Assembly (NCBI GenBank): GCA_015296065.1
Contig: DVDU01000250.1
Span: 1 to 46,229, forward strand
Source: Oscillatoriaceae cyanobacterium M33_DOE_052
GTDB lineage: Bacteria; Cyanobacteriota; Cyanobacteriia; Cyanobacteriales; Laspinemataceae
Direction: 5' to 3'
Length of the DNA stretch: 46,229 nt
A program made the position numbers and the translations under genes. Below are positions 951 through 36,175 of the stretch, piece by piece. How positions within the stretch are numbered: the first letter of the stretch is position 1; every line of letters starts with the position of its first letter. The notes under the pieces are model-generated. The model searched no databases and had not been told where the DNA came from. It was given only the letters and a program-made list of their open reading frames with translations.

Positions 951-982
951 GTCATTAGTCATTGGTCATTGGTCATTGGTCC
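951..982. repeat. STRR-type heptamer tandem repeat, (TGGTCAT)n
   Basis: The sequence gtcattagtcattggtcattggtcattggtcc is visible directly. Similar arrays occur at 13419-13437, 29641-29663 and 45727-45752. Confidence 0.8.
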
Positions 983-985
983 GCC

Positions 986-1050
986 AGAAACCGGGTTTCT
1001 TAACCAGGTCTTGGTGAAAATACCAAGATTATCGCAGAAACCCGGTTTCT
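986..1050. repeat. Small dispersed repeat of about 65 bp bounded by two AGAAACCCGGGTTTCT palindromes (MITE-like); copy 1
   Basis: The sequence is CAGAAACCGGGTTTCTTAACCAGGTCTTGGTGAAAATACCAAGATTATCGCAGAAACCCGGTTTCT. The same architecture recurs at 5939-6003 (inverted), 44232-44296, 32156-32220 and 13452-13523. Confidence 0.7.
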
Positions 1051-2032: not shown

Positions 2033-3595
2033 ATGATGACAATTCACCCATATTTATATGCAGATGAGATGTTAATTACTACAAGTGAGAGCATTTATAT
2101 ACCCAAAAATGCCTTTGCACCGTGGCGCTGCTGGCACCCCAAAATCCTGCAATTCGCCATCTGCTTGCTAGCCACTCTCTGGGCAGAAATAGCCGTGGCA
2201 GCCTCACCGTGGCTAGATTTCAGCCTCCCCCAACCACCGCCTACACCTGCCTCGGTGGGGGACCAAACAGACCAACCAAAATCAGCAGCAGAGCTGTTTG
2301 CCACCGTGCAGTCTCCAGGGTCGATCGCCGTGGGGGTAGCGGAAGGCAACATGGACATCACCGGTGAAGCCACTCCCCTGTACCAGGGCCACACCGACCC
2401 GGGCAACGGCGTCACCAACCGGGGATTTTGCTCCTGGAACCGAGCCGCCAAGCTGACCGTAGCCGAAGCTGACGCCTCATGTCTCTCCCGGCTGCAAGTC
2501 CAAGCCGCTGACACAGAAAAACAGCTCCAAAGCCAGGGATTGGACCCGCAAAAAGATGTCATTGCTTTAGTCAATGGCACCGACTTAGCGAATCAATCTC
2601 CTCGGGCTGGTGAAGACTTTGGCACGCGGTACGCAGAGGCATTGGCAAAAGGTTTGAAAGGAGAAAAGGCCCTGATTGATGCCCGCGTGGAATCCTTCCG
2701 CGAACCAAGCGTTTCGGGGAAAGGCACCCTTTCCGCCAGTGGTTTATTCCGCATTTGCCGCCACTATGCCAGCTATCGGGATAAATTGGCGGCTCACCAG
2801 TTGTACTCGGAAGCATGGCGGTGGCAATGTATCGCTCTGGACCAGGGGCGACGGGTGCGGGCGATCGACAGCGCTTTAGCGCAAAATCTTGCCTCCCCGC
2901 CTCCCCGTCGGCACATCTCCCCATCACCCGATCGCAATTCCGCTCTAGATTTCGGGGTTTCCCAAACTCCAAGGGTATGGGAAGATACGCCAACACCGCC
3001 ACCAGTTCCGGCCCCTGATTTAGGGCTAGATTTCCGAGTTTCCCAAACTCCGGCGACTACGGCGGCGGTTTCTACTCTAGATTTCGGGGTGGAAGAGCCA
3101 ACACCCCCCGAACCATCAGCAAAACCCCCATTTTCCGGCAACCCCGTCACCAAAACTGGCACCAAAATCGGCAACTGCACCATTACCGATATTCGCCGGT
3201 TTAGGAGCAAGCACCCAGTGTCCGGAATGCCGCCCCGGTGGCACAACGGCATTGACATCGCTTGCGGCGGTACTCACAATGTATATAGCCCCGTGGATGG
3301 TAATCTCACTATCTTACCCCCAGCCAAATCTGGCGGCGGCGGGTTAGTAGCGCGAATCACCACCAAATCCGGCTGGACCGTGCAAAATATGCACATGCTA
3401 GAAATCACCGCCAAAGCGGGGAAAGTGGCAGCGGGGGAGAAGTTGGGCACCGGCGGCGCCCCCAACGGCCACCCCAACGCCGGAACCAGTACCGGTCCAC
3501 ACTCGCACTATGAACGTTTCCGAGTAGTGGAGGGTCAGCGGCAATATGTTACCCCCACAGATACAGAGTTAAAAGCCCTTTTAGGTGGGGGGTAG
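2033..3595 (+). CDS. M23-family (LytM) peptidoglycan endopeptidase with an N-terminal domain of unknown function and a Pro/Thr-rich linker containing internal repeats
   Basis: The C-terminus has WHNGIDIACGGTHNVYSPVDGNL and STGPHSHYE, matching the HxxxD and HxH catalytic motifs of M23. An AAGGAG ribosome-binding site lies 9 nt upstream of the ATG. A signal-like hydrophobic segment is present. Three nucleotide repeats (ctagatttcggggtttcccaaactcc) lie at 2944-3098. Confidence 0.8.
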   Translation: MMTIHPYLYADEMLITTSESIYIPKNAFAPWRCWHPKILQFAICLLATLWAEIAVAASPWLDFSLPQPPPTPASVGDQTDQPKSAAELFATVQSPGSIAVGVAEGNMDITGEATPLYQGHTDPGNGVTNRGFCSWNRAAKLTVAEADASCLSRLQVQAADTEKQLQSQGLDPQKDVIALVNGTDLANQSPRAGEDFGTRYAEALAKGLKGEKALIDARVESFREPSVSGKGTLSASGLFRICRHYASYRDKLAAHQLYSEAWRWQCIALDQGRRVRAIDSALAQNLASPPPRRHISPSPDRNSALDFGVSQTPRVWEDTPTPPPVPAPDLGLDFRVSQTPATTAAVSTLDFGVEEPTPPEPSAKPPFSGNPVTKTGTKIGNCTITDIRRFRSKHPVSGMPPRWHNGIDIACGGTHNVYSPVDGNLTILPPAKSGGGGLVARITTKSGWTVQNMHMLEITAKAGKVAAGEKLGTGGAPNGHPNAGTSTGPHSHYERFRVVEGQRQYVTPTDTELKALLGGG

Positions 3596-3598
3596 CTT

Positions 3599-3632
3599 CA
3601 ACCCGGTTTCTCACAGAAACCGGGTTTTTTTT
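3599..3632. repeat. Paired AACCCGGTTTCT / AGAAACCGGGTTT palindromes followed by a T8 run. Likely an intrinsic terminator for the M23 gene; belongs to the ~65-bp dispersed-repeat family.
   Basis: The sequence caacccggtttctcacagaaaccgggtttttttt lies immediately after the stop at 3595. Confidence 0.55.
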
Positions 3633-3790
3633 AAAGGATTTGAGTTAAACTGGGGAAAAACATTTACTCACCATTCCCCTTCCCGCCGTTGCTTTGGGCT
3701 AAAGCCCTACTACGAACCTCTTTTCCCATCACCCCCATTCATCCTATGCCCATACCTCGCCGCGATCGCATTCAACCCCGCATCTCTTCC

Positions 3791-4062: not shown

Positions 4063-4749
4063 ATGACCAAAACAACTATCGTTAAAGTACCGCCTTTAGA
4101 AAGTGGCGATCGTCTGACGCGCACCGAGTTTGAACTGCGCTATCACGCCGCCCCCGAAATTCACAAAGCCGAACTAATTCAAGGAGTAGTTTACTTGGCA
4201 TCCCCCGTGCGTGCGAACCGACATGGCGGCCCCCACGGCGTCATTATGGCTTGGCTAGGCGCCTATTGGATGGCGACTCCCGGCGTCGAACTCTACGATA
4301 ATGCCACCGTGCGTCTTGATGAAGAAAACGAGCCCCAACCCGATGCTTTATTACGCCTAGAACCCGCCGCCGGTGGCAACTCTGTCATTAGTGAAGATGA
4401 TTATATTGAAGGCGCCCCAGAACTGGTAATAGAAATTGCTGCCAGCAGTGCTAGTTATGATTTAAATGACAAACTTAATGTTTATCAAAGCCACGGCGTT
4501 AAAGAATACATAGTTTGGCAAGTTTATGAAAACCAACTCGATTGGTTTCAGCTTCAGCAAAACATTTATCTTCCTCTAAATGCAGATAGTAACGGCATTA
4601 TTCGCTCTCAAATATTCCCTGGCTTGTGGCTATCAGTAGATGGCTTACGCCAAAGAAACCGCGCCCAATTGCAGGCTGTTTTGCAACAGGGTTTGCAAAC
4701 ATCAGCCCATCAAGAATTTGTGGAGAAACTGGCTGGCTCTGGGGGATAG
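4063..4749 (+). CDS. Uma2-family endonuclease (DUF820, putative restriction-endonuclease-like)
   Basis: The motifs ELIQGVVYLASP, PELVIEIAASSASYDLNDKLNVYQSHGVKEYIVW and the overall pattern are typical of the abundant cyanobacterial Uma2 family. Confidence 0.8.
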   Translation: MTKTTIVKVPPLESGDRLTRTEFELRYHAAPEIHKAELIQGVVYLASPVRANRHGGPHGVIMAWLGAYWMATPGVELYDNATVRLDEENEPQPDALLRLEPAAGGNSVISEDDYIEGAPELVIEIAASSASYDLNDKLNVYQSHGVKEYIVWQVYENQLDWFQLQQNIYLPLNADSNGIIRSQIFPGLWLSVDGLRQRNRAQLQAVLQQGLQTSAHQEFVEKLAGSGG

Positions 4750-5024: not shown

Positions 5025-5124
5025 ATGTTTGGGTGATAATGGGGAAGGCAGGTAAGGGCAAGGCAAGAGTGGGCTAAAGCCCAACTACTAACCTTTTTTT
5101 GGCTCAAGCCCAACTAAGAACCGA

Positions 5125-5862
5125 TTAACTGGTTTTAAATACAGCGAAGTTGAAAGGTGCGGTAAAATTATTATACCGGATGCGGAGGCGACTGTCAAAT
5201 AATTTATCCAGGGATTCTACTTGGGTGGCAAAGTGGGGTTCGTCATCCCAGGGGATTAAATAGGCGGCGTTGTAGATCATATTATCAGTGAGGGAGTCGC
5301 GCTCGACAATTTCCACCGCTAGGGGGTTGAGGGTGGCTTGAAATTGGGCGATAATTTCTTGACGATGGTGGGCGAGATGGCGTTCGATTTCTTGTCCGAT
5401 CGCGATCGTTTGCTCCATACTCAGAGTTGTCCCCGATAGCCGATCGCGCCTTGCCCGCAAGTCCTCATTGGCGGCTAAAATCAAATCCAGTTCCGCCTTT
5501 TCCTCCCAAAACACCTTTACCCCCACCTCCCGTCTCCCCTCCAACTTCTCAAACAGCTCATCCAACTTATCCCCATAAGGAATAGTCAACTGCTCCGCCA
5601 CCGCCTGCCAATTTGGCACCGTCGAACCAAATTGTAAAGGCAGTAAATAGGGATAACCCATTTGCATCGCCGCTTCCAGTACCTTTTCATGTCCCAACAA
5701 ATTGCGGCGACTAGCTAAATAACGCTCCTGTTGTGCCTGAGAATACAAAAAAGTAAACCCATCCACCACCCGCACTTGCACAGGTTGTCCATCCAAACCC
5801 AGCAAATCCAAAATATCGGGCTCTGATGGGAGAATGCCGTACAAATAAAAACCGTATGCCAT
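5125..5862 (-). CDS. gvpF: Gas vesicle protein GvpF/GvpL family
   Basis: The N-terminal MAYGFYLYGILP and C-terminal RLRIRYNNFTAPFNF hallmarks of GvpF/L are present. The length is 245 aa. Confidence 0.8.
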   Translation of the reverse strand: MAYGFYLYGILPSEPDILDLLGLDGQPVQVRVVDGFTFLYSQAQQERYLASRRNLLGHEKVLEAAMQMGYPYLLPLQFGSTVPNWQAVAEQLTIPYGDKLDELFEKLEGRREVGVKVFWEEKAELDLILAANEDLRARRDRLSGTTLSMEQTIAIGQEIERHLAHHRQEIIAQFQATLNPLAVEIVERDSLTDNMIYNAAYLIPWDDEPHFATQVESLDKLFDSRLRIRYNNFTAPFNFAVFKTS

Positions 5863-5938
5863 TCTTTAACTAAATTTGCTGCTGCATAATTGTACAATTA
5901 AGTCATTATTCACTTGTCCATAGTCCCTGGTGCGGATT

Positions 5939-6003
5939 AGAAACCGGGTTTCTGCGATAATCTTGGGTTCTCAACCGAAATTTGGTTAAGAAACCCGGTT
6001 TCT
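5939..6003. repeat. Copy 2 of the ~65-bp dispersed repeat (inverted orientation). It is followed by a 2.5x tandem repeat, caaggacaaaagaatccctacc, at 6021-6075.
   Basis: AGAAACCGGGTTTCTGCGATAATCTTGG...TTAAGAAACCCGGTTTCT is the reverse complement of the 986-1050 architecture. Confidence 0.7.
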
Positions 6004-6077
6004 GGGTTAGCCAAATGACTAAGGACAAAAGAATCCCTACCCAAGGACAAAAGAATCCCTACCCAAGGACAAATCCC

Positions 6078-9618: not shown

Positions 9619-10164
9619 ATGCTCAAACGGATTGCGGCAATTATTTTATTAGTGCTGACAGTGACAGTTACTAGCTGCGCTGCATCAGCGACGGCGGGAC
9701 TGCAGCCATACGTGGATAGCTACAAAGGATATCAGTTTTTATATCCCAATGGCTGGACGCAGGTAAATGCGGGTAAGGGACCAGATGTGGTCTTCCACGA
9801 TTTAATCAACCAAATGGATAATGTTAGCGTGGTCATTTCCCCAGTGCCGAATGGCAAAACTCTGGCCGAATTGGGCACGCCTTCAGAAGTTGGTTATAAG
9901 CTGTCGAAAAATGCGATCGCGCCTGCGGGTTCGGGACGAGAAGCCGAACTGCTCAGCGCCGAAAGCCTGGAAAAAGGGGATAAAAGTTACTACATTTTTG
10001 AATATGACGTGAAGCTGGCTAACGACGTGCATCGGCATAATTTAGCCAGCGTGGCAGTGAGCCGGGGTAAATTATTCACTTTGAATTTATCTACCACGGA
10101 AAATAGCTGGCAAAAACGGGCGTATCAGTTTAACAATGTGGTCAAAAGTTTTTCTGTGAATTAG
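9619..10164 (+). CDS. psbP: PsbP-domain protein (CyanoP), a photosystem II lumenal lipoprotein
   Basis: A lipoprotein signal peptide (VTSCAA) is present. YKGYQFLYPNGW and the overall length of about 180 aa are typical of cyanobacterial PsbP homologs. Confidence 0.75.
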   Translation: MLKRIAAIILLVLTVTVTSCAASATAGLQPYVDSYKGYQFLYPNGWTQVNAGKGPDVVFHDLINQMDNVSVVISPVPNGKTLAELGTPSEVGYKLSKNAIAPAGSGREAELLSAESLEKGDKSYYIFEYDVKLANDVHRHNLASVAVSRGKLFTLNLSTTENSWQKRAYQFNNVVKSFSVN

Positions 10165-10175
10165 TCCTTGGTCCA

Positions 10176-10227
10176 ATTGATAATTGATAATTAACAATTG
10201 ATAATTATCAATTATCAATTATCAATT
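10176..10227. repeat. Palindromic heptamer array, (AATTGAT)n switching to (AATTATC)n, of the STRR-like TTGATAA family
   Basis: ttgataattgataattaacaattgataattatcaattatcaattatcaa lies 35 nt upstream of the maf start. Confidence 0.8.
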
Positions 10228-10262
10228 TGCCTGCCTAACCAATAACAAATCACAAAGAAGAT

Positions 10263-13355: not shown

Positions 13356-13451
13356 GGTGCCAGCTACAAATCCTGAAACTATTACATCACCTTCCCTTAG
13401 TCAGCACCCTGGCAATTCGTCATTGGTTATTGGTCACAAGTCACTTGTGGG

Positions 13452-13523
13452 AGAAACCAGGTTTCAGCACCAGCGGCCTCGCCTCGGTTATGAAGCCTAG
13501 ATTACCGCAGAAACCGGCTTTAT
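13452..13523. repeat. Degenerate copy of the ~65-bp dispersed repeat
   Basis: GAGAAACCAGGTTTC...CGCAGAAACCGGCTTT. Confidence 0.5.
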
Positions 13524-15557: not shown

Positions 15558-15925
15558 CCTAAGTCCAAAGTCCTAAGTCATTTGTCCCACAGAAACCGGA
15601 ACCAAGCTGCGAAAACCTAGGTTTGATACCGAGATACCGTGTAGGGTGGGCAGTGCCGATGATGAGCCAGATTCAATAGTGACAGGCATTTTGGTAGGCA
15701 CTGCCCACCCAGCCCGCGTCAAGGTGGCAAATTTTGTCACGGTAAACCGTCTTTTCTGACGTTCATCAAACCAGATTTAGGAGACCGAACCAGGGGCGGA
15801 CCCCAGAATTGTCAGAGTTACGAGAGCTGAAAACCAGCCTCCTCGTTAACCACCAAGACGCGGGCTGGCACTGCCCACCCTACTAGCTAGCTTGGGACAA
15901 ATGACAAAGGACTAAGGACAAAATT
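15558..15925. mobile_element. Nested MITE-like insertion. The core of about 243 bp (15641-15883) has terminal inverted repeats GTAGGGTGGGCAGTGCC / GGCACTGCCCACCCTAC and an internal third copy. It sits inside an outer inverted pair of STRR-type repeats (gtcctaagtcatttgtccc / gggacaaatgacaaaggactaaggac).
   Basis: The inverted repeats are read directly from the sequence. The region has no coding potential and lies between a TA locus and argC. Related GGCATTGCCCACC half-sites occur at 22865-22925 and 25655-25730. Confidence 0.5.
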
Positions 15926-20296: not shown

Positions 20297-20395
20297 GCCA
20301 GCAGTTCTTAGTTGAGCTGTAGCCCAAAAGGGTTGTCGGGCCTTCCCACAGCGGTTCCTAGTTGAGCTGTAGCCCAAAAGGTTTGTCGGGCTTTC
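20297..20395. repeat. Two tandem ~50-nt units, each containing GTTCTTAGTTGAGCTGTAGCCC, upstream of rpsN
   Basis: This is the reverse complement of the GGGCT(A/G)AAGCCCAACTAAGAAC motif seen at 3695-3718, at 5070-5123 (two copies) and at 41311-41335. Confidence 0.6.
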
Positions 20396-21242: not shown

Positions 21243-21267
21243 AAGATTTTTTCAAATCCAAATCCCA

Positions 21268-21349
21268 GATAATTAACAATTGATAATTAACAATTGATAA
21301 TTGATAATTAATAATTATCAATTATCAATTATCAATTGTCAATTGTCAC
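21268..21349. repeat. Palindromic TTGATAA-family heptamer array ending 13 nt before the aat start codon
   Basis: gataattaacaattgataattaacaattgataattgataattaataattatcaattatcaattatcaattgtcaattgtcac. Confidence 0.8.
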
Positions 21350-21361
21350 TGGACAAATGAA

Positions 21362-21940
21362 ATGAAGTATAACATCCCGGCAATTATCGAAGGCTATGCC
21401 AAAGGATATTTCCTGATGGCGAACGATGGCGATGACTCCCTGGATTGGTATAGCAGCCGCCAAAGAGCGCTAATACCATTAGACGATCGGTTTCGTTATC
21501 CCAAGTCCCTACAACGCATCCTCAACCAAGACCGATTTACCGAGGCAGTTAACCAAAACTTTGAGGCAGTGGTGAATGGTTGCGCCAACCGGGATACCAC
21601 CTGGATATCCCCCCAACTGCAGGAAATTTACTGGGAACTGCATCTCTCCGGCTGGGCCTACAGCTTTGAAACCTGGCAGGGAGACGAACTAGCAGGCGGA
21701 ATTTTAGGCATAGTCATTGGTGGCGCCTTCATCGGCGAATCAATGTTTTACCGCATTCCCGATGGTTCTAAAGTGGCGATGGTGAAGTTGGTAGAAAGGC
21801 TGCGCGATCGCCAGTTTCTCCTCTTCGATGCCCAAATGACCAACCCCCACCTAGAGCGCTTTGGTGCCTACACCGTCAAAGACAAAGAATATCAAGAGCT
21901 GCTCGCCCGCTCCTTGTACCGGCGGTGTTCCTTATTGTAA
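21362..21940 (+). CDS. aat: Leucyl/phenylalanyl-tRNA--protein transferase
   Basis: GYFLM..DGDDSLDWYSSRQRALIP, WISPQLQEIYWELHLSGWAYSFETW and GGILGIVIGGAFIGESMF match the L/F-transferase family. Confidence 0.85.
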   Translation: MKYNIPAIIEGYAKGYFLMANDGDDSLDWYSSRQRALIPLDDRFRYPKSLQRILNQDRFTEAVNQNFEAVVNGCANRDTTWISPQLQEIYWELHLSGWAYSFETWQGDELAGGILGIVIGGAFIGESMFYRIPDGSKVAMVKLVERLRDRQFLLFDAQMTNPHLERFGAYTVKDKEYQELLARSLYRRCSLL

Positions 21941-22794: not shown

Positions 22795-22944
22795 TTATTT
22801 CCTCTGGATGGCCATATGGACCATTTTACCCAGAGGATAACGTTAGAGGGTAGTGCCGTATTTTGGGCAATGCCCACCTTACCAGGCTCTTGAACAGGGC
22901 ATTACCCCCGGATGGTGGGCATTCCCCTGTTCACAGAAAAAAAT

Positions 22945-24688: not shown

Positions 24689-25558
24689 TCAGAGGATATC
24701 GCTGCTAATGCGACTTTCGCCGATTTTCGGTCTGCCATTATGGCTCCACCAGTCCTGCCATTTAGAGCGGTCCATGTTGATTTGCCGAACGCCGTCAGGC
24801 GTCGCGTTAGCATCGGTGGTGACGCTCTCATTGTATATTTCCACCAACTCCAGCAGCGTCATTGTATAATCTTGCAGCAAGTCTTTACAGGCGAAGAGCA
24901 AATCGCCGCGATCGCCCAGCGCATTCATTTTCTTAGCATCCCAAATCGAGCCAATAAAGCGAATAAACACCGAAGCTGAAAGCTCTTCGATCACATCAAC
25001 CACTTGAGAATCCAAATAAAACGAGTACCGATCCACCACTTGACCCAGAGCTGATTGCAGACTAGAACACTCAGAATAAAGATAATCCAGCCAGTCCATT
25101 TCTTCCCCTTGGGGCGTCACCACCGGCGCCACCTTCAACAAATCCAGAAACTTCACTTCCTGAAAATAGGTTTCGTCAAATAAATCTCTAATATTTTGAT
25201 AATCTTTATCTGGTTTCACTTCTACGGATGCTTTAAACATATCAAATAACAAATAAATTTGTTTTCTCAAAACAAATCTTAGTTGCCGAAAAGCTATTTC
25301 TCTAAATTTCTTTTTTTCCTTCTCTTGATTAGCTTCTACCGTTTGATTTACCGTAAAAAGCACCACCAATATTCCTACCAGCTCTGCCGCTAAATTCAAA
25401 GAAAAATCTTTTAACCATAAATCACAAACCCCACCAAGTGAAAAATTATTCAAACATCCCCAAAGAGAGATAAAAGACAACAGCAAAACTAAAAATAAAA
25501 TTGCATAAGATTCCTTTAAAAAATCTGGCGATAAAAATTTCCTGAATGAATGCCACAT
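24689..25558 (-). CDS. Hypothetical membrane protein with two N-terminal transmembrane helices. Its 5' half is strongly AT-rich and its 3' half has host-like GC.
   Basis: Hydrophobic segments AILFLVLLLSFISLWGCL and LAAELVGILVVLFTV are present. The first ~500 nt of the gene are visibly AT-rich relative to the flanks. A TTGATAA array directly abuts the start codon. Confidence 0.55.
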   Translation of the reverse strand: MWHSFRKFLSPDFLKESYAILFLVLLLSFISLWGCLNNFSLGGVCDLWLKDFSLNLAAELVGILVVLFTVNQTVEANQEKEKKKFREIAFRQLRFVLRKQIYLLFDMFKASVEVKPDKDYQNIRDLFDETYFQEVKFLDLLKVAPVVTPQGEEMDWLDYLYSECSSLQSALGQVVDRYSFYLDSQVVDVIEELSASVFIRFIGSIWDAKKMNALGDRGDLLFACKDLLQDYTMTLLELVEIYNESVTTDANATPDGVRQINMDRSKWQDWWSHNGRPKIGESRISSDIL

Positions 25559-25570
25559 AAAAAATAGCCC

Positions 25571-25632
25571 ATTGATAATTGATAATTGATAATTGATAAT
25601 TGATAATTGATAATTGATAATTGATAATTATC
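25571..25632. repeat. (TTGATAA)n array of about 8 units, 13 nt upstream of the start of the 24689-25558 gene
   Basis: ttgataattgataattgataattgataattgataattgataattgataattat. Confidence 0.8.
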
Positions 25633-26002
25633 CCCGTGACTTCATAGGGGCAGGGTGAGCAATGCCCAAGACAATCTCTAAGGCGACCCCACAGCCATAT
25701 CAGTAGGCATTGCCCACCCGACAATCTTTTGCAGGCTGACAGAAATCTATCATATCCCACCCTTGGGGACTTCTGGACTAGAGACCCCAAGGCTCCATAA
25801 CAGATTTAGGGCTATTTCCGGTCACAACAAAGACAGTGACGAGAGCGACTACCATCTCCCAACGACACCAAGAGAGCTGCAGCCATCACCACGAAGCAAA
25901 AACCGTGGACAGTTGAGTAAGTGACCTCAAGAGGCGATTTTACTTCTGACGCCGCCAAAGCCAATCGGAATCAGTTAGCAGTTATGAACGGGTAGGTTCA
26001 AA

Positions 26003-26608
26003 ATGCGCGTCTACACTTCCATCCTCTTGTCCGGTCTGCTCCTCGCCAGTTTCACCAACAGCGCCCGAGCCATTTCATCTCGCAATGGCGAATCCTCCGC
26101 ACCCGCCACCGCCACAATCATACAGGTACAAACTGAAAAAGATTCCTTGATATCCCAGCCAGCTCTCACCGGTGAGTCCCACTGGGCCAATCTCAAACAT
26201 CGCGGTAGCGGTCGAGTAGAAACCAGCCAAGATGCTCGCAGTAGCGATCGCGTCAAGTCAGAAGATGCTCGCGGTAGCGGTCGCGTCGAAAATACCCCCG
26301 ATGCTCGCGGTAGCGGTCGCGTCAAGTCAGAAGATGCTCGCGGTAGCGGTCGCGTCGAAAATACCCCCGATGCTCGCGGTAGCGGTCGCGTCAAGTCAGA
26401 AGATGCTCGCGGTAGCGGTCGCGTCGAAAACAGCGAAGACGCCCGGGGCAGTGGCCGAGTGAAATCAGAAGACGATCGCGGTAGCGGTCGCGTGGAAAAC
26501 AACGAAGACGCCCGGGGCAGTGGCCGAGTGAAATCAGAAGACGATCGCGGTAGCGGTCGCGTCGAGAAAGATAACGCTGGTCGGGGCAGCGGCAGGGTGG
26601 AAGCGTAA
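26003..26608 (+). CDS. Secreted repeat protein: a signal peptide followed by about 13 tandem 11-aa units (DARGSGRVKSE alternating with DARGSGRVENTP)
   Basis: MRVYTSILLSGLLLASFTNSARA is a Sec signal. The 33-nt DNA units (gatgctcgcggtagcggtcgcgtcaagtcagaa) are arranged in 66-69-nt super-repeats. The antisense ORF 26011-26502 was rejected. Confidence 0.6.
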   Translation: MRVYTSILLSGLLLASFTNSARAISSRNGESSAPATATIIQVQTEKDSLISQPALTGESHWANLKHRGSGRVETSQDARSSDRVKSEDARGSGRVENTPDARGSGRVKSEDARGSGRVENTPDARGSGRVKSEDARGSGRVENSEDARGSGRVKSEDDRGSGRVENNEDARGSGRVKSEDDRGSGRVEKDNAGRGSGRVEA

Positions 26609-32084: not shown

Positions 32085-32310
32085 GCTGTGGGGTGGATGT
32101 GCGCCAGCATTTGGGGGGATGCCTGTGGAAAAACTGTGGAAAACTGCCCCAATTTGTCCCAGAGGAGAAACCCGGTTTGTTCACCAAATCCTCCTGATCA
32201 AACCTAGATTGTCGCAGAAACCCGGTTTCTGGCGGCGGTGAATTTTCCACAGCAAGGGGGGTATTTTTCCACAAAAAATGGGGTGTTTTTTCACAGAAAG
32301 GGGGCGATTT
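32085..32310. other. oriC: Chromosomal replication origin (oriC) core: a DnaA-box cluster between dnaA and dnaN
   Basis: TGTGGAAAA occurs twice (32114-32122 and 32125-32133). TTTTCCACA occurs twice (32233-32241 and 32255-32263). TTTTTCACA occurs once (32277-32285). Weaker boxes are near 32085-32098. A ~22-nt periodic GGGG...T5CCACA...A-tract pattern is present. An AT-rich stretch, tatattttag, lies at 32061. Confidence 0.7.
32156..32220. repeat. Copy of the ~65-bp AGAAACCCGGTTTCT-bounded dispersed repeat, inserted within the DnaA-box cluster
   Basis: AGAAACCCGGTTTGTTCACCAAATCCTCCTGATCAAACCTAGATTGTCGCAGAAACCCGGTTTCT. Confidence 0.6.
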
Positions 32311-33756: not shown

Positions 33757-33794
33757 TGATTACCTCGCCGTAGTTCGGGGACGGGGATGGGGAG

Positions 33795-33867
33795 ATAATT
33801 AACAATTAACAATTAACAATTGATAATTATCAATTATCAATTATCAATTATCAATTATCAATTATCA
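33795..33867. repeat. Palindromic TTGATAA-family heptamer array 39 nt upstream of the dnaA start codon
   Basis: ataattaacaattaacaattaacaattgataattatcaattatcaattatcaattatcaattatcag. Confidence 0.8.
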
Positions 33868-34041
33868 GGGAATGGCGGGATGAAGCAGAAAATTCCCCTC
33901 ATCTATAATGATAGATAAGCCGAGGAAACGACAGACCGCAGCTAAGACCGTCCGCGCATCTCTAACCACTGCCGTTCCCGATCCGCTGTGGGCTGAAGCT
34001 TTTCCCGGCGCTGTTGATTTTGCTTTTGCATTGGGACTTTT

Positions 34042-35295
34042 GTGGCGATGGATAATTTTGAGCAGAGGAACGCACGGGGTAAAGGTTCTGGGCAACCGGC
34101 AGTTTATTTGCTACTGGTGTTGCTCGGAGCGGCTGGAGGTTTGGCGGGCGATCGCTTCCTCCTCAAAAATGGCCCCTTGGGCGCTGCCGCTTTAAACCAA
34201 GGGCAGCAAACTTCTCCCGCACCTACTAACGGAAATTCTAACCCCGGAGTGGCTTACTTGCCGCCACCGGTGGATACTAACTTTATTGTGGAAGCCGTGA
34301 ATAAGGTTGGACCCGCTGTGGTGCGAATTAACGCCGCCCGTACCGTCACCAACAACGGCCCCGACCCCTTTAATGACCCCTTTTTCCGCCGCTTTTTCGG
34401 TCCTAATGCTCAGGTTCAACCCCGGGAGCGGGTAGAGCGGGGCACTGGTTCCGGTTTTATCCTCAGTGCAGATGGTCAAGTGTTGACTAACGCTCACGTC
34501 ATCAATGGCGCCGATACCGTGAGCGTAGTTCTCAAAGACGGACGGACTTTTGATGGCAAAGTCCTCGGCGTTGACCCCGTTACCGATGTGGCGGTGGTGA
34601 AAATTGAAGCCCAAAACCTCCCCACCGTCACTCTCGGAGATTCCGAGAAATTGCAACCCGGGGAATGGGCCGTGGCGATCGGCAACCCCCTCGGACTCGA
34701 TAACACCGTCACCGCAGGCATCATCAGCGCCACCGGTCGTTCCAGCAGCGAGGTCGGCGTCCCCGACAAGCGAGTAGGCTTCATCCAAACCGACGCCGCC
34801 ATCAACCCCGGCAACTCCGGCGGCCCCTTACTCAACGCCCAAGGCGAAGTCATCGGGGTAAACACCGCCATCATCCAAGGCGCCCAAGGACTCGGTTTTG
34901 CCATCCCCATCAACACCGCTCAGCGCATCGCCGAGCAACTCATCACCACCGGTAAAGCCCAGCATCCCTTCTTAGGCATAGAAATGGCCACCCTCACCCC
35001 AGAACTGAAAAAACAAATCAACCAAGACCCCAACAGTCCCATCACTATCACCGCTGACCAAGGGGTACTCATCGCCCGCGTCGTCCCCAACTCCCCCGCC
35101 GCCGCCGCCGGAATTCGAGCCGGTGATGTGATTCAAAAAATCGACAACACCCCCATCACCAAATCCGACACCATACAGCAAATCGTCCAAGCCTCCAAAA
35201 TTGGCCAGTCATTACAGGTAGAAATCAACCGTAACGGCAAAATCCAAACCATAGAGGTCAAACCCGGAGATATGCCCGTCCAAGCTAATAATTAA
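34042..35295 (+). CDS. htrA: HtrA/DegP-family (Do) serine protease with a C-terminal PDZ domain
   Basis: The catalytic triad context is present (TNAHVI; D in VDPVTDVAVVKI; TDAAINPGNSGGPL), followed by a PDZ-like GIRAGDVIQKIDNTPI. Confidence 0.85.
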   Translation: MAMDNFEQRNARGKGSGQPAVYLLLVLLGAAGGLAGDRFLLKNGPLGAAALNQGQQTSPAPTNGNSNPGVAYLPPPVDTNFIVEAVNKVGPAVVRINAARTVTNNGPDPFNDPFFRRFFGPNAQVQPRERVERGTGSGFILSADGQVLTNAHVINGADTVSVVLKDGRTFDGKVLGVDPVTDVAVVKIEAQNLPTVTLGDSEKLQPGEWAVAIGNPLGLDNTVTAGIISATGRSSSEVGVPDKRVGFIQTDAAINPGNSGGPLLNAQGEVIGVNTAIIQGAQGLGFAIPINTAQRIAEQLITTGKAQHPFLGIEMATLTPELKKQINQDPNSPITITADQGVLIARVVPNSPAAAAGIRAGDVIQKIDNTPITKSDTIQQIVQASKIGQSLQVEINRNGKIQTIEVKPGDMPVQANN

Positions 35296-35304
35296 TTTCT
35301 GGGG

Positions 35305-35356
35305 ATAATTGATAATTATCAATTATCAATTATCAATTATCAATTATCAATTATCC
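35305..35356. repeat. Palindromic TTGATAA-family heptamer array between htrA and def
   Basis: gataattgataattatcaattatcaattatcaattatcaattatcaattatcc. Confidence 0.8.
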
Positions 35357-35382
35357 CCACCCTCCCCACACCCTCAAACACC

Positions 35383-35917: not shown

Positions 35918-36175
35918 AATCACGCCGTGCCCTTTCGTGGGGTTGGTCACGGCGTGATTAATATTATTTCTCACATGAATTAAGCTAATGATGCTGTGCC
36001 TTTTCGTGGGGGTGGGCACGGCGGGATTAAAGTTGTTTGTCATATGAATTAAATTAAGGATGCCGTGCCCCTACGGTTGGCTATTGGTAGGGGCACGGCG
36101 TGATTGAGATTATTCGTCACATGAATAACATTGACGTAGCTGTGCTACTACGGGTGCAATTAACCGATATCAACC
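35918..36175. repeat. Tandem array of about 3.5 units of roughly 70 nt. Each unit has a 12-13-bp perfect hairpin built on a CACGCCGTGCCC / GGGCACGGCGTG core, followed by a conserved AT-rich box TCACATGAATTA.
   Basis: The units fall at about 35918-35989, 35990-36058, 36059-36130 and a degenerate unit at 36131-36175. The stems are aatcacgccgtg/cacggcgtgatt and gccgtgcccctac/gtaggggcacggc. The array lies between the convergent def and MVP genes. Confidence 0.6.

Follow-up and report, generated by a model that had tools for sequence, protein, structure and literature searches.

An untagged palindromic repeat family of filamentous cyanobacteria, probably REPINs, and its association with a RayT transposase lineage

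REPINs, which are doublets of REP (repetitive extragenic palindromic) units, have been described as elements whose inverted ends do not vary, whose spacer is constant in length but lower in conservation, and of which singlets are rare (PMC3116915). A GTAG or CGTC tag marks most of the described REPs that accompany REP-associated tyrosine transposases (RAYT or RayT), and untagged REP-like families have been acknowledged (PMC3733652); the tag is common among REPs, not universal. In filamentous cyanobacteria, the GTAG-12, -15 and -16 REPs are small extragenic stem-loops that leave a GTAG unpaired on one side (Di Nocera et al. 2013, PMC3733652), and the RAYT Npun_F5543 of Nostoc punctiforme is flanked by the REP GTTGGGTTTCGTTCCTCAACCCAAC, present in 13 copies (Bertels and Rainey 2011, Table S2; PMC3116915). 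Here, we describe a dispersed family of ~65-bp elements in contig DVDU01000250.1 of Oscillatoriaceae cyanobacterium M33_DOE_052, a stretch of 46,229 nucleotides referred to below as the window. A first-pass annotation had read these elements, bounded by the 15-mer AGAAACC(G/C)GGTTTCT, as a MITE-like mobile repeat (MITE, miniature inverted-repeat transposable element) co-opted as terminators. Our analysis indicates that they are very probably REPINs spread in trans by a RayT, and that the AGAAACC family is a further REP/REPIN family with its own RayT lineage, not a new type of element.

The AGAAACC family shares most of its features with the REPIN-RAYT systems of Pseudomonas fluorescens SBW25 (GI-GIII) and of Escherichia coli (REP/BIME with TnpA-REP). 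In all of them, inverted palindromic REPs lie at a fixed distance around a drifting spacer; singlets are rare, the elements are extragenic, leave no target duplication and form tandem clusters; the same REP brackets one small HUH/Y1 transposase gene, and different RayT lineages have different REPs. The AGAAACC REP is a near-perfect 7+1+7 palindrome without a GTAG or CGTC tag, and the element is shorter, at 65 nt, with 50 nt between REP starts compared with 71 nt in SBW25 GI. Moreover, the same REP occurs in several cyanobacterial orders, in metagenome-assembled genomes (MAGs) of Chloroflexi and in a MAG of 59% G+C, and Planktothricoides holds at least two RayT copies, 22 kb apart. The REP of Npun_F5543 is likewise palindromic and lies beside a cyanobacterial RAYT, but its sequence is different. 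Two families like the GTAG-tagged cyanobacterial REPs occur in the window itself, whereas the AGAAACC family lacks the unpaired GTAG. The small dispersed repeats (SDRs) of Nostocaceae, which Elhai et al. (2008) reportedly described, are very small hairpin repeats of 21-27 nt, often lying in tandem heptamer arrays or nested in other repeats and variable in presence between related genomes, and are reportedly known solely from Nostocaceae. The AGAAACC copies also abut heptamer arrays and nest with other repeats. Since the CtaE protein encoded in the window is 84% identical to that of Laspinema, the genome belongs to Oscillatoriales and not to Nostocales.

The unit of the family is a REP whose 7-nt arms pair around an unpaired centre base; it had earlier been described as a perfect palindrome. 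A full element consists of AGAAACCGGGTTTCT, a spacer of ~35 nt and AGAAACCCGGTTTCT. Because the centre base is G in the left REP and C in the right one, the two ends are exact reverse complements; together they form a doublet stem of 15 bp, with predicted folds of -26 to -34 kcal/mol for the copies at 986, 5939 and 44232. With up to two mismatches, AGAAACCCGGTTTCT matched the window's strands 25 times, whereas shuffles predict 0.14 matches, and four full elements are solid, which confirms that a dispersed repeat family is present. Window copies were scored with a profile built exclusively from copies of other genomes. Three full elements lie exactly where they had been placed: 986..1050 (profile E 1e-15), whose 35-nt spacer forms a perfect internal hairpin (predicted fold of the element, -34.3 kcal/mol) and which has GTCATT-type heptamers on its left; 5939..6003 (E 4e-16), with the spacer inverted relative to 986; and 44232..44296 (E 1e-15), in the ctaD-ctaE spacer. 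The fourth, with left REP AGAAACCCGGTTTGT and a second spacer subfamily, is at 32166..32230 (E 1.5e-9), 10 nt away from the 32156-32220 first reported. The copy at 13452..13523, listed earlier as full, is recognizable but decayed, with two mismatches per REP, a 42-nt spacer and a marginal profile match (E 0.05-0.15, at 13436-13521); it is 79% identical to the 32166 copy over 39 nt (family D10).

The palindrome-only derivatives claimed near 3599 and 45021 are real as well. These close REP pairs, both on the plus strand, span 3598..3632 (12-bp stem, 3-nt loop, then T8; -18.1 kcal/mol; profile E 0.02, at 3615) and 45020..45054, where AAAAACCGGGTTTCT TGAGG GGAAACCCGGTTTTT forms a stem of 16 bp between A and T tracts (-21.3 kcal/mol; profile E 0.002). 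A third derivative, claimed at 15595-15640, was not supported. The doubtful remnant at 15590..15640 amounts to half a REP, CAGAAACCGG, with weak spacer similarity (profile E 6.6, not significant), and abuts a GTAG-type doublet at 15641-15713. The supportable copies therefore number seven instead of at least eight. An interior inverted repeat, CTTGGT...ACCAAG, had been ascribed to every copy; only the 986 copy has it in perfect form, the 5939 and 44232 copies have it in part, and the 32166 and 13452 copies lack it. Searches of the window with Rfam gave no family at the gathering threshold and, at a relaxed threshold, a chance-level match near the ctaD-ctaE copies; no tRNA or tmRNA was found in the window. 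In the literature library that was searched for literal matches, no relevant paper contained the 13-mer or 11-mer of the REP.

The family is not confined to the window. When one genome of each species was scanned for pairs of exact 15-mers separated by 25-50 nt, at least 118 loci emerged, and the statistics on pairs, spacing and location given below rest on these loci listed from other genomes. Among the matches listed, carriers include Lyngbya, Microcoleus, Calothrix, Okeania, Trichodesmium, Spirulina, Planktothrix, Tychonema, Oscillatoria, Leptolyngbya-like MAGs and others; several Chloroflexi MAGs (Thermoflexales, Anaerolineae) carry the family too, with a subfamily of their own of 60-62 nt. 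The 158 pairs at the 118 loci peak in element length at 64-67 nt, and the spacing between REP starts has a sharp peak at 49-52 nt. The centre bases are inverted in 138 of the 158 pairs (binomial p 7e-23), 110 of them with G,C and 28 with C,G; the other 20 pairs have direct centres (C,C or G,G). Partnerless 15-mers are few (17/394), and several genomes hold tandem arrays that repeat every 83-88 nt. Spacers keep their length and are nearly unrelated across genomes, save for a weak AATCTYGG...CCRAGATT pattern. The flanks hold only a Y at -2, an R at +2 and G-richness. These observations uphold the view of dispersed repeats of a selfish type, present in both orientations.

A hairpin within the spacer was considered as a feature of the family and rejected, since the folding energy of 103 distinct spacers from other genomes equals that of shuffles and mirrored pairs number only 6.8 against 6.1. 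At one locus (L098, 383-468), a GTAG-type REP (GTAGGGGCG...CGCCCCTAC) is nested in the spacer of an AGAAACC element, which is thereby lengthened to 86 nt. No match was found in 2.9 million viral contigs. The search with RayT found no cyanobacterial plasmid, and the element query is too short to be informative on plasmid carriage.

Next, ORFs (open reading frames) bracketed on both sides by elements were scanned for a RayT. At the densest locus, L062 of Oscillatoria sp. HE19RPO, the bracketed ORF encodes 186 aa and matches Pfam Y1_Tnp (E 9e-12) and the NCBIfam family NF047646, 'REP-associated tyrosine transposase' (81.6 bits, curated cutoff 80). The closest solved relative of the protein is E. 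coli TnpA-REP (4ER8), and it carries both the HUH motif (H60-Y-H62) and a tyrosine motif, RYIHLNPV. An element lies 11 nt from the stop codon and a truncated element 38 nt from the start codon, and then comes an array of at least nine elements. The cluster of this protein at 90% identity includes Planktothricoides proteins already named RayT by NCBI and JGI. In the complete genome of Planktothricoides raciborskii GIHE-MW2, one element lies upstream of the first RayT gene and an array starts 23 nt past the stop codon of this gene, a locus with 26 15-mers in 10.5 kb; the second copy, 22 kb from the first, lies among 49 15-mers in 8.8 kb. For comparison, an unselected dnaN region of another Planktothricoides genome holds 2 15-mers in 21 kb. 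As the Oscillatoria and Planktothricoides proteins are at least 90% identical, they do not represent independent lineages.

More distant RayT homologues were obtained by a profile-free search of 1.8 billion representatives. A RayT with 65% identity to that of L062, encoded in the MAG of 59% G+C, is accompanied by the same 15-mer, in close pairs 17 nt before its start codon and again after the gene. At lower identities the palindrome is a different one: CTGCGACTTCT...AGAAGTCGCAG beside a RayT of 59% identity in the metagenome contigs L219 and L220 (50% G+C), and CAAACCCGTTTTGC...GCAAAACGGGTTTG beside a RayT of 56% identity in an Anaerolineales MAG and of 50% identity in related contigs (64-65% G+C). 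L062, L212, L213 and L215-L218 are RayT loci with the same REP, and L214 and L219-L222, at 50-59% RayT identity, carry other REPs. This change of the flanking palindrome together with the RayT is the signature of REP-RAYT systems.

The association with a RayT also bears on the first-pass reading of the elements as MITE-like. A classical MITE would be a deletion derivative of an insertion sequence (IS), with 15-bp terminal inverted repeats (TIRs) bound by a DDE transposase and movement by cut and paste. The perfect 15-bp inverted ends, the small size and the many dispersed copies in both orientations agree with such an origin, and MITEs are abundant in Oscillatoriales and Nostocales (PMC11602168). 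However, flush direct repeats of at least 2 nt number 9, where 8.8 would be expected, so that a check for target-site duplications revealed none beyond chance. Furthermore, the supposed TIR is itself palindromic, neither a longer element sharing these ends nor a DDE transposase was found among 105 flanking ORFs or the bracketed ORFs, and no autonomous parent IS with the same termini was seen in ~0.85 Mb of element-bearing loci. The sole transposase found bracketed by the repeats is the Y1/HUH RayT. Direct and inverted repeats that are not flush with the element are shared by the flanks above chance, and we attribute them to HIP1 and local repeats, not to transposition. A described cyanobacterial MITE, Nezha of Anabaena and Nostoc, is non-coding, has TIRs and a stable predicted hairpin, and shows filled and empty sites between relatives (PMC3184786). 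Nezha measures 130-170 bp, is flanked by direct repeats and has the same TIR as ISNpu3, in contrast to the AGAAACC family, with no duplications and a tyrosine transposase. MITE in the strict sense is therefore not the right term, and we consider a MITE origin very unlikely. Since the enzyme beside the repeats is a RayT, the elements belong with REPs and REPINs.

Comparison with close relatives points to turnover of REPINs at individual sites. In L207, a metagenome contig ~97% identical to the window, the ctaD-ctaE element is unchanged, and the sequence after the ctaE stop codon is entirely different, with the hairpin of 45020 absent. In L208, which is ~95% identical, the 5939 element, upstream of gvpF, occupies its site as in the window; 6 of the 35 spacer bases differ, both REPs are intact, and one REP carries a 14-nt partial duplication. 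L208 also has a full element between gvpF and gvpG, in a spacer that holds two GTAG-type REP hairpins in the window, and another just after gvpG, a slot taken in the window by a Uma2 (DUF820) nuclease gene at 4063-4749. A metagenome scan with CtaE for further close relatives gave none among the matches listed, all of which were distant. When orthologous copies were pooled, including those of Laspinema strains, changes affected 16 of 141 spacer positions but 3 of 120 REP positions (Fisher p 0.007), a difference that fits selection for intact REPs. The window copy at 5939 is 77% identical to the array beside the Oscillatoria RayT, and the 32166 copy is 78% identical to the gvpF-gvpG copy of L208. 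Because spacer subfamilies are common to unrelated loci and genomes, new copies arise by copying. In Laspinema, a ~1.1-kb cassette with DUF6883 and DUF4926 genes lies between two REPINs in L120 and L122 (14544-15730) and is missing from L119 and L121 (14550-14640); its borders are off the REPs, so it carries no information on mechanism.

The Uma2 gene that holds the slot of a full element raises the possibility that the palindromes are targets or footprints of Uma2 nucleases, marking homing sites of their genes, which are abundant in these phyla. Uma2 is the most frequent family among the flanking ORFs (5/105), and of the 12 Uma2-like ORFs in the loci, six have an element no more than 150 nt away. 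This adjacency is not significant, as ~3.5 of 12 would be expected, and the positions of elements relative to Uma2 genes are inconsistent. Besides, the Uma2 gene of the window shows no remnants of the 15-mer at its borders, and the RayT association explains the data without Uma2. We therefore regard this explanation as extremely improbable. As a separate observation, the flanks of the 4063-4749 gene hold heptamer remnants, and the gene is absent from this slot in L208. Two further resemblances were likewise dismissed: for parS sites, the order of half-sites differs, and for integron attC sites, the copies are single and dispersed by housekeeping genes instead of forming cassette arrays.

In the other genomes, the elements are nearly always extragenic. 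An element inside an ORF of at least 120 aa was seen in 3 of the 118 loci listed, and the nearest stop codon is at a median distance of 38 nt. Among 64 elements with two close neighbours, the flanking genes were convergent in 21, tandem in 42 and divergent in 1 (p 3e-7). This placement beside the 3' ends of genes is a REP-like pattern. The neighbours are ordinary housekeeping genes, and transposases are not enriched among the 105 flanking ORFs.

Such a strong bias toward gene 3' ends, with near absence from divergent spacers, could also be read as the mark of a host-selected motif, in which terminators, RNA-stabilizing hairpins or sites for a host protein are selected site by site and RayT is a mere neighbour. 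Conserved REPs with drifting spacers would agree with that, as would the terminator-like hairpin derivatives and a spacing of ~50 bp, which is about five helical turns. However, the same 3'-end bias is equally expected from the purging of harmful insertions, and the full elements are without a U-tract. One spacer subfamily found at unrelated loci argues for origin by copying and not for independent origins. In addition, a terminator role leaves unexplained the tandem arrays of up to ten copies around RayT genes, and the palindrome switches when the adjoining RayT switches. Selection of a host motif is thus an improbable account of the family, and REPINs spread by a RayT remain our preferred reading.

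A role in termination may still apply to individual derivatives. The first-pass annotation had noted copies right after the stop codons of an M23 peptidase gene, ctaD and ctaE, where palindrome plus T-run would act as a terminator. Pfam searches confirmed the gene names, and the positions hold: the 3598 hairpin begins 3 nt past the stop codon of the M23 peptidase gene (2033-3595), the 44232 element 6 nt past that of ctaD, and the 45020 hairpin 26 nt past that of ctaE, which ends at 44993. In the hairpin-only derivatives, the REPs are 3-6 nt apart and the outer bases are changed to A and T tracts. The hairpins at 3600-3626 and 45020-45054 are the longest-stem terminator-like matches on the coding strand in their respective regions, and a G+C-containing stem-loop directly followed by a U-tract, on the coding strand and at the downstream side of the gene, was found only at 3598-3632 and 45020-45054. 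Therefore, as judged from their predicted structure, these two most likely serve the M23 peptidase gene and ctaE as intrinsic terminators. The 3598 hairpin is conserved in L208, with a 165-nt insertion in its loop. In the four full elements, the loops exceed 8 nt and the stem is not followed by a T-run, and none of them was called in the terminator scan. Because full 65-bp copies lack the T-run, the earlier proposal applies to the derivatives after the M23 peptidase gene and ctaE but not to the full ctaD copy. By analogy with the REPs of E. coli, the full element within the ctaCDE operon, if it has any role, would more likely form a stable RNA hairpin than a terminator.

The remaining window copies lie in other settings. 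The 5939 element is in the divergent spacer between gvpF/L (5125-5862, minus strand) and an SbcC-like gene (plus strand), and the decayed 13452 copy in the divergent spacer between a CheA-like gene and the enolase gene. The 32166 element occupies the dnaA-dnaN spacer and has a group of DnaA boxes on either side, one inverted relative to the other. Perfect DnaA boxes, TTTTCCACA, number only four in the window; all are in this spacer, as two oppositely oriented pairs that enclose the element, which makes the earlier placement of a copy inside oriC reasonable at the sequence level. The DnaA-box cluster as a whole (32124-32295) consists of two TGTGGAAAA, the REPIN and two TTTTCCACA, plus one near-match. 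In Planktothricoides, the dnaA-dnaN spacer has the same box layout without the element and shares the 15-nt GGTTTCTGGCGGCGG of the element's right end (L209, ~9870).

Several observations weigh against the interpretation of these elements as RayT-borne REPINs. The GTAG or CGTC tag typical of most RAYT-associated REPs was not found in the REP flanks, and independent RayT support comes mainly from the homologue with 65% identity. No RayT homologue was found in the 46-kb window, and the mobilizing enzyme of the M33_DOE_052 genome is one that we infer. Two, perhaps three, of the five full or decayed window copies lie in divergent spacers, contrary to the trend of the family. The comparison of empty sites among relatives, proposed as a check on mobility, bore out that occupancy differs between relatives at 95-97% identity, but a clean pair of filled and empty sites was not found; the differences in L207 and L208 are replacements of whole spacers and consequently document turnover, not its mechanism.

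Taken with the evidence described above, these points still leave the REPIN interpretation very probable, and we propose the following course of events. The elements code for nothing and consist of two inverted REP 15-mers around a ~35-nt spacer free to vary; they would be spread in trans by RayT, the REP-associated tyrosine transposase of HUH/Y1 type. As E. coli TnpA-REP and the IS200/IS605 family suggest by analogy, this enzyme may recognize the REP hairpin on single-stranded DNA, cut it and rejoin it without target duplication. Copies would last where harm is small, chiefly just downstream of genes. The REPs are kept intact as spacers drift, and copies appear, disappear, multiply in tandem and are split by other repeats. 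Finally, REP pairs 3-6 nt apart, with outer bases turned into A and T tracts, form canonical hairpins with a U-tract, which most likely terminate transcripts of the M23 peptidase gene and ctaE.

The window and its relatives contain further repeats. GTAG-tagged REP hairpins, GTAGTWGGGCTNWAGCCC, are located at 3696-3713, 5071-5088, 20308-20375 and 41306-41329 (6 matches, 0 expected); two of these copies fill the gvpF-gvpG spacer that holds an AGAAACC element in L208. A third family, GTAGGGTGGGCAGTGCC, forms inverted REPIN-like doublets at 15641-15713, 15867-15883, 22866-22882 and 25706-25722 and, in L208, at 2054-2175. The 165-nt insertion of L208 carries a GTAGGGTGGGCAGTGCC doublet along with a ~44-nt target duplication and sits exactly in the loop of the putative M23 peptidase terminator. 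AT-rich heptamer arrays (GATAATT / AATTATC) are found between genes at 10143-10259, 21253-21369, 25545-25661, 33779-33881 and 35275-35363; they flip orientation midway, yielding long palindromes without a central AGAAACC element. The elements themselves are abutted by degenerate heptamers, of GTCATTT type on one side and mirrored, of AAATGAC type, on the other, in the window (952-985, 5900-5938 and 6004-6060, 13420-13451, 44297-44341) and also in L208 (1056-1081, 1147-1213). Heptamer arrays, similar to short tandemly repeated repetitive (STRR) sequences, were tried as a general partner of the family and rejected; they accompany 6 of 152 elements, compared with 1.1% of control windows, and are strong solely in the M33_DOE_052 lineage. 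Tandem repeats of 69 nt occupy 26131-26592, within the ORF 26003-26608, and three intergenic repeats of 69-77 nt, beginning GGGCACGGCG, lie at 35918-36156.

A broader scenario can be sketched, although we consider it speculative and on the doubtful side. One RayT lineage with the untagged REP AGAAACCSGGTTTCT, free of GTAG and CGTC, might have spread over at least two, perhaps three, phyla, comprising many orders of filamentous cyanobacteria, the Chloroflexi MAGs and the MAG of 59% G+C. A few point mutations (AGAAA to AAAAA, TTTCT to TTTTT) might repeatedly have made REP pairs into working terminators, so that REPINs would be a regular source of terminators in cyanobacteria, which lack Rho, and would be tolerated even in the DnaA-box cluster of the origin.

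With a correct name for the 65-bp palindromes, annotators of cyanobacterial MAGs need not call them unknown features, promoters or small RNAs. The repeats also explain fragmented assemblies, as several contigs end in or near arrays (L062, L207). A defined REP for a RayT lineage without the GTAG/CGTC tag would be useful for studies of how RAYTs recognize hairpins, and the hairpin-only derivatives provide a case in which the conversion of selfish repeats into terminators can be put to the test. Finally, the same REP-RayT pair in distant phyla makes a case for horizontal spread of a system that is usually described as vertically inherited.

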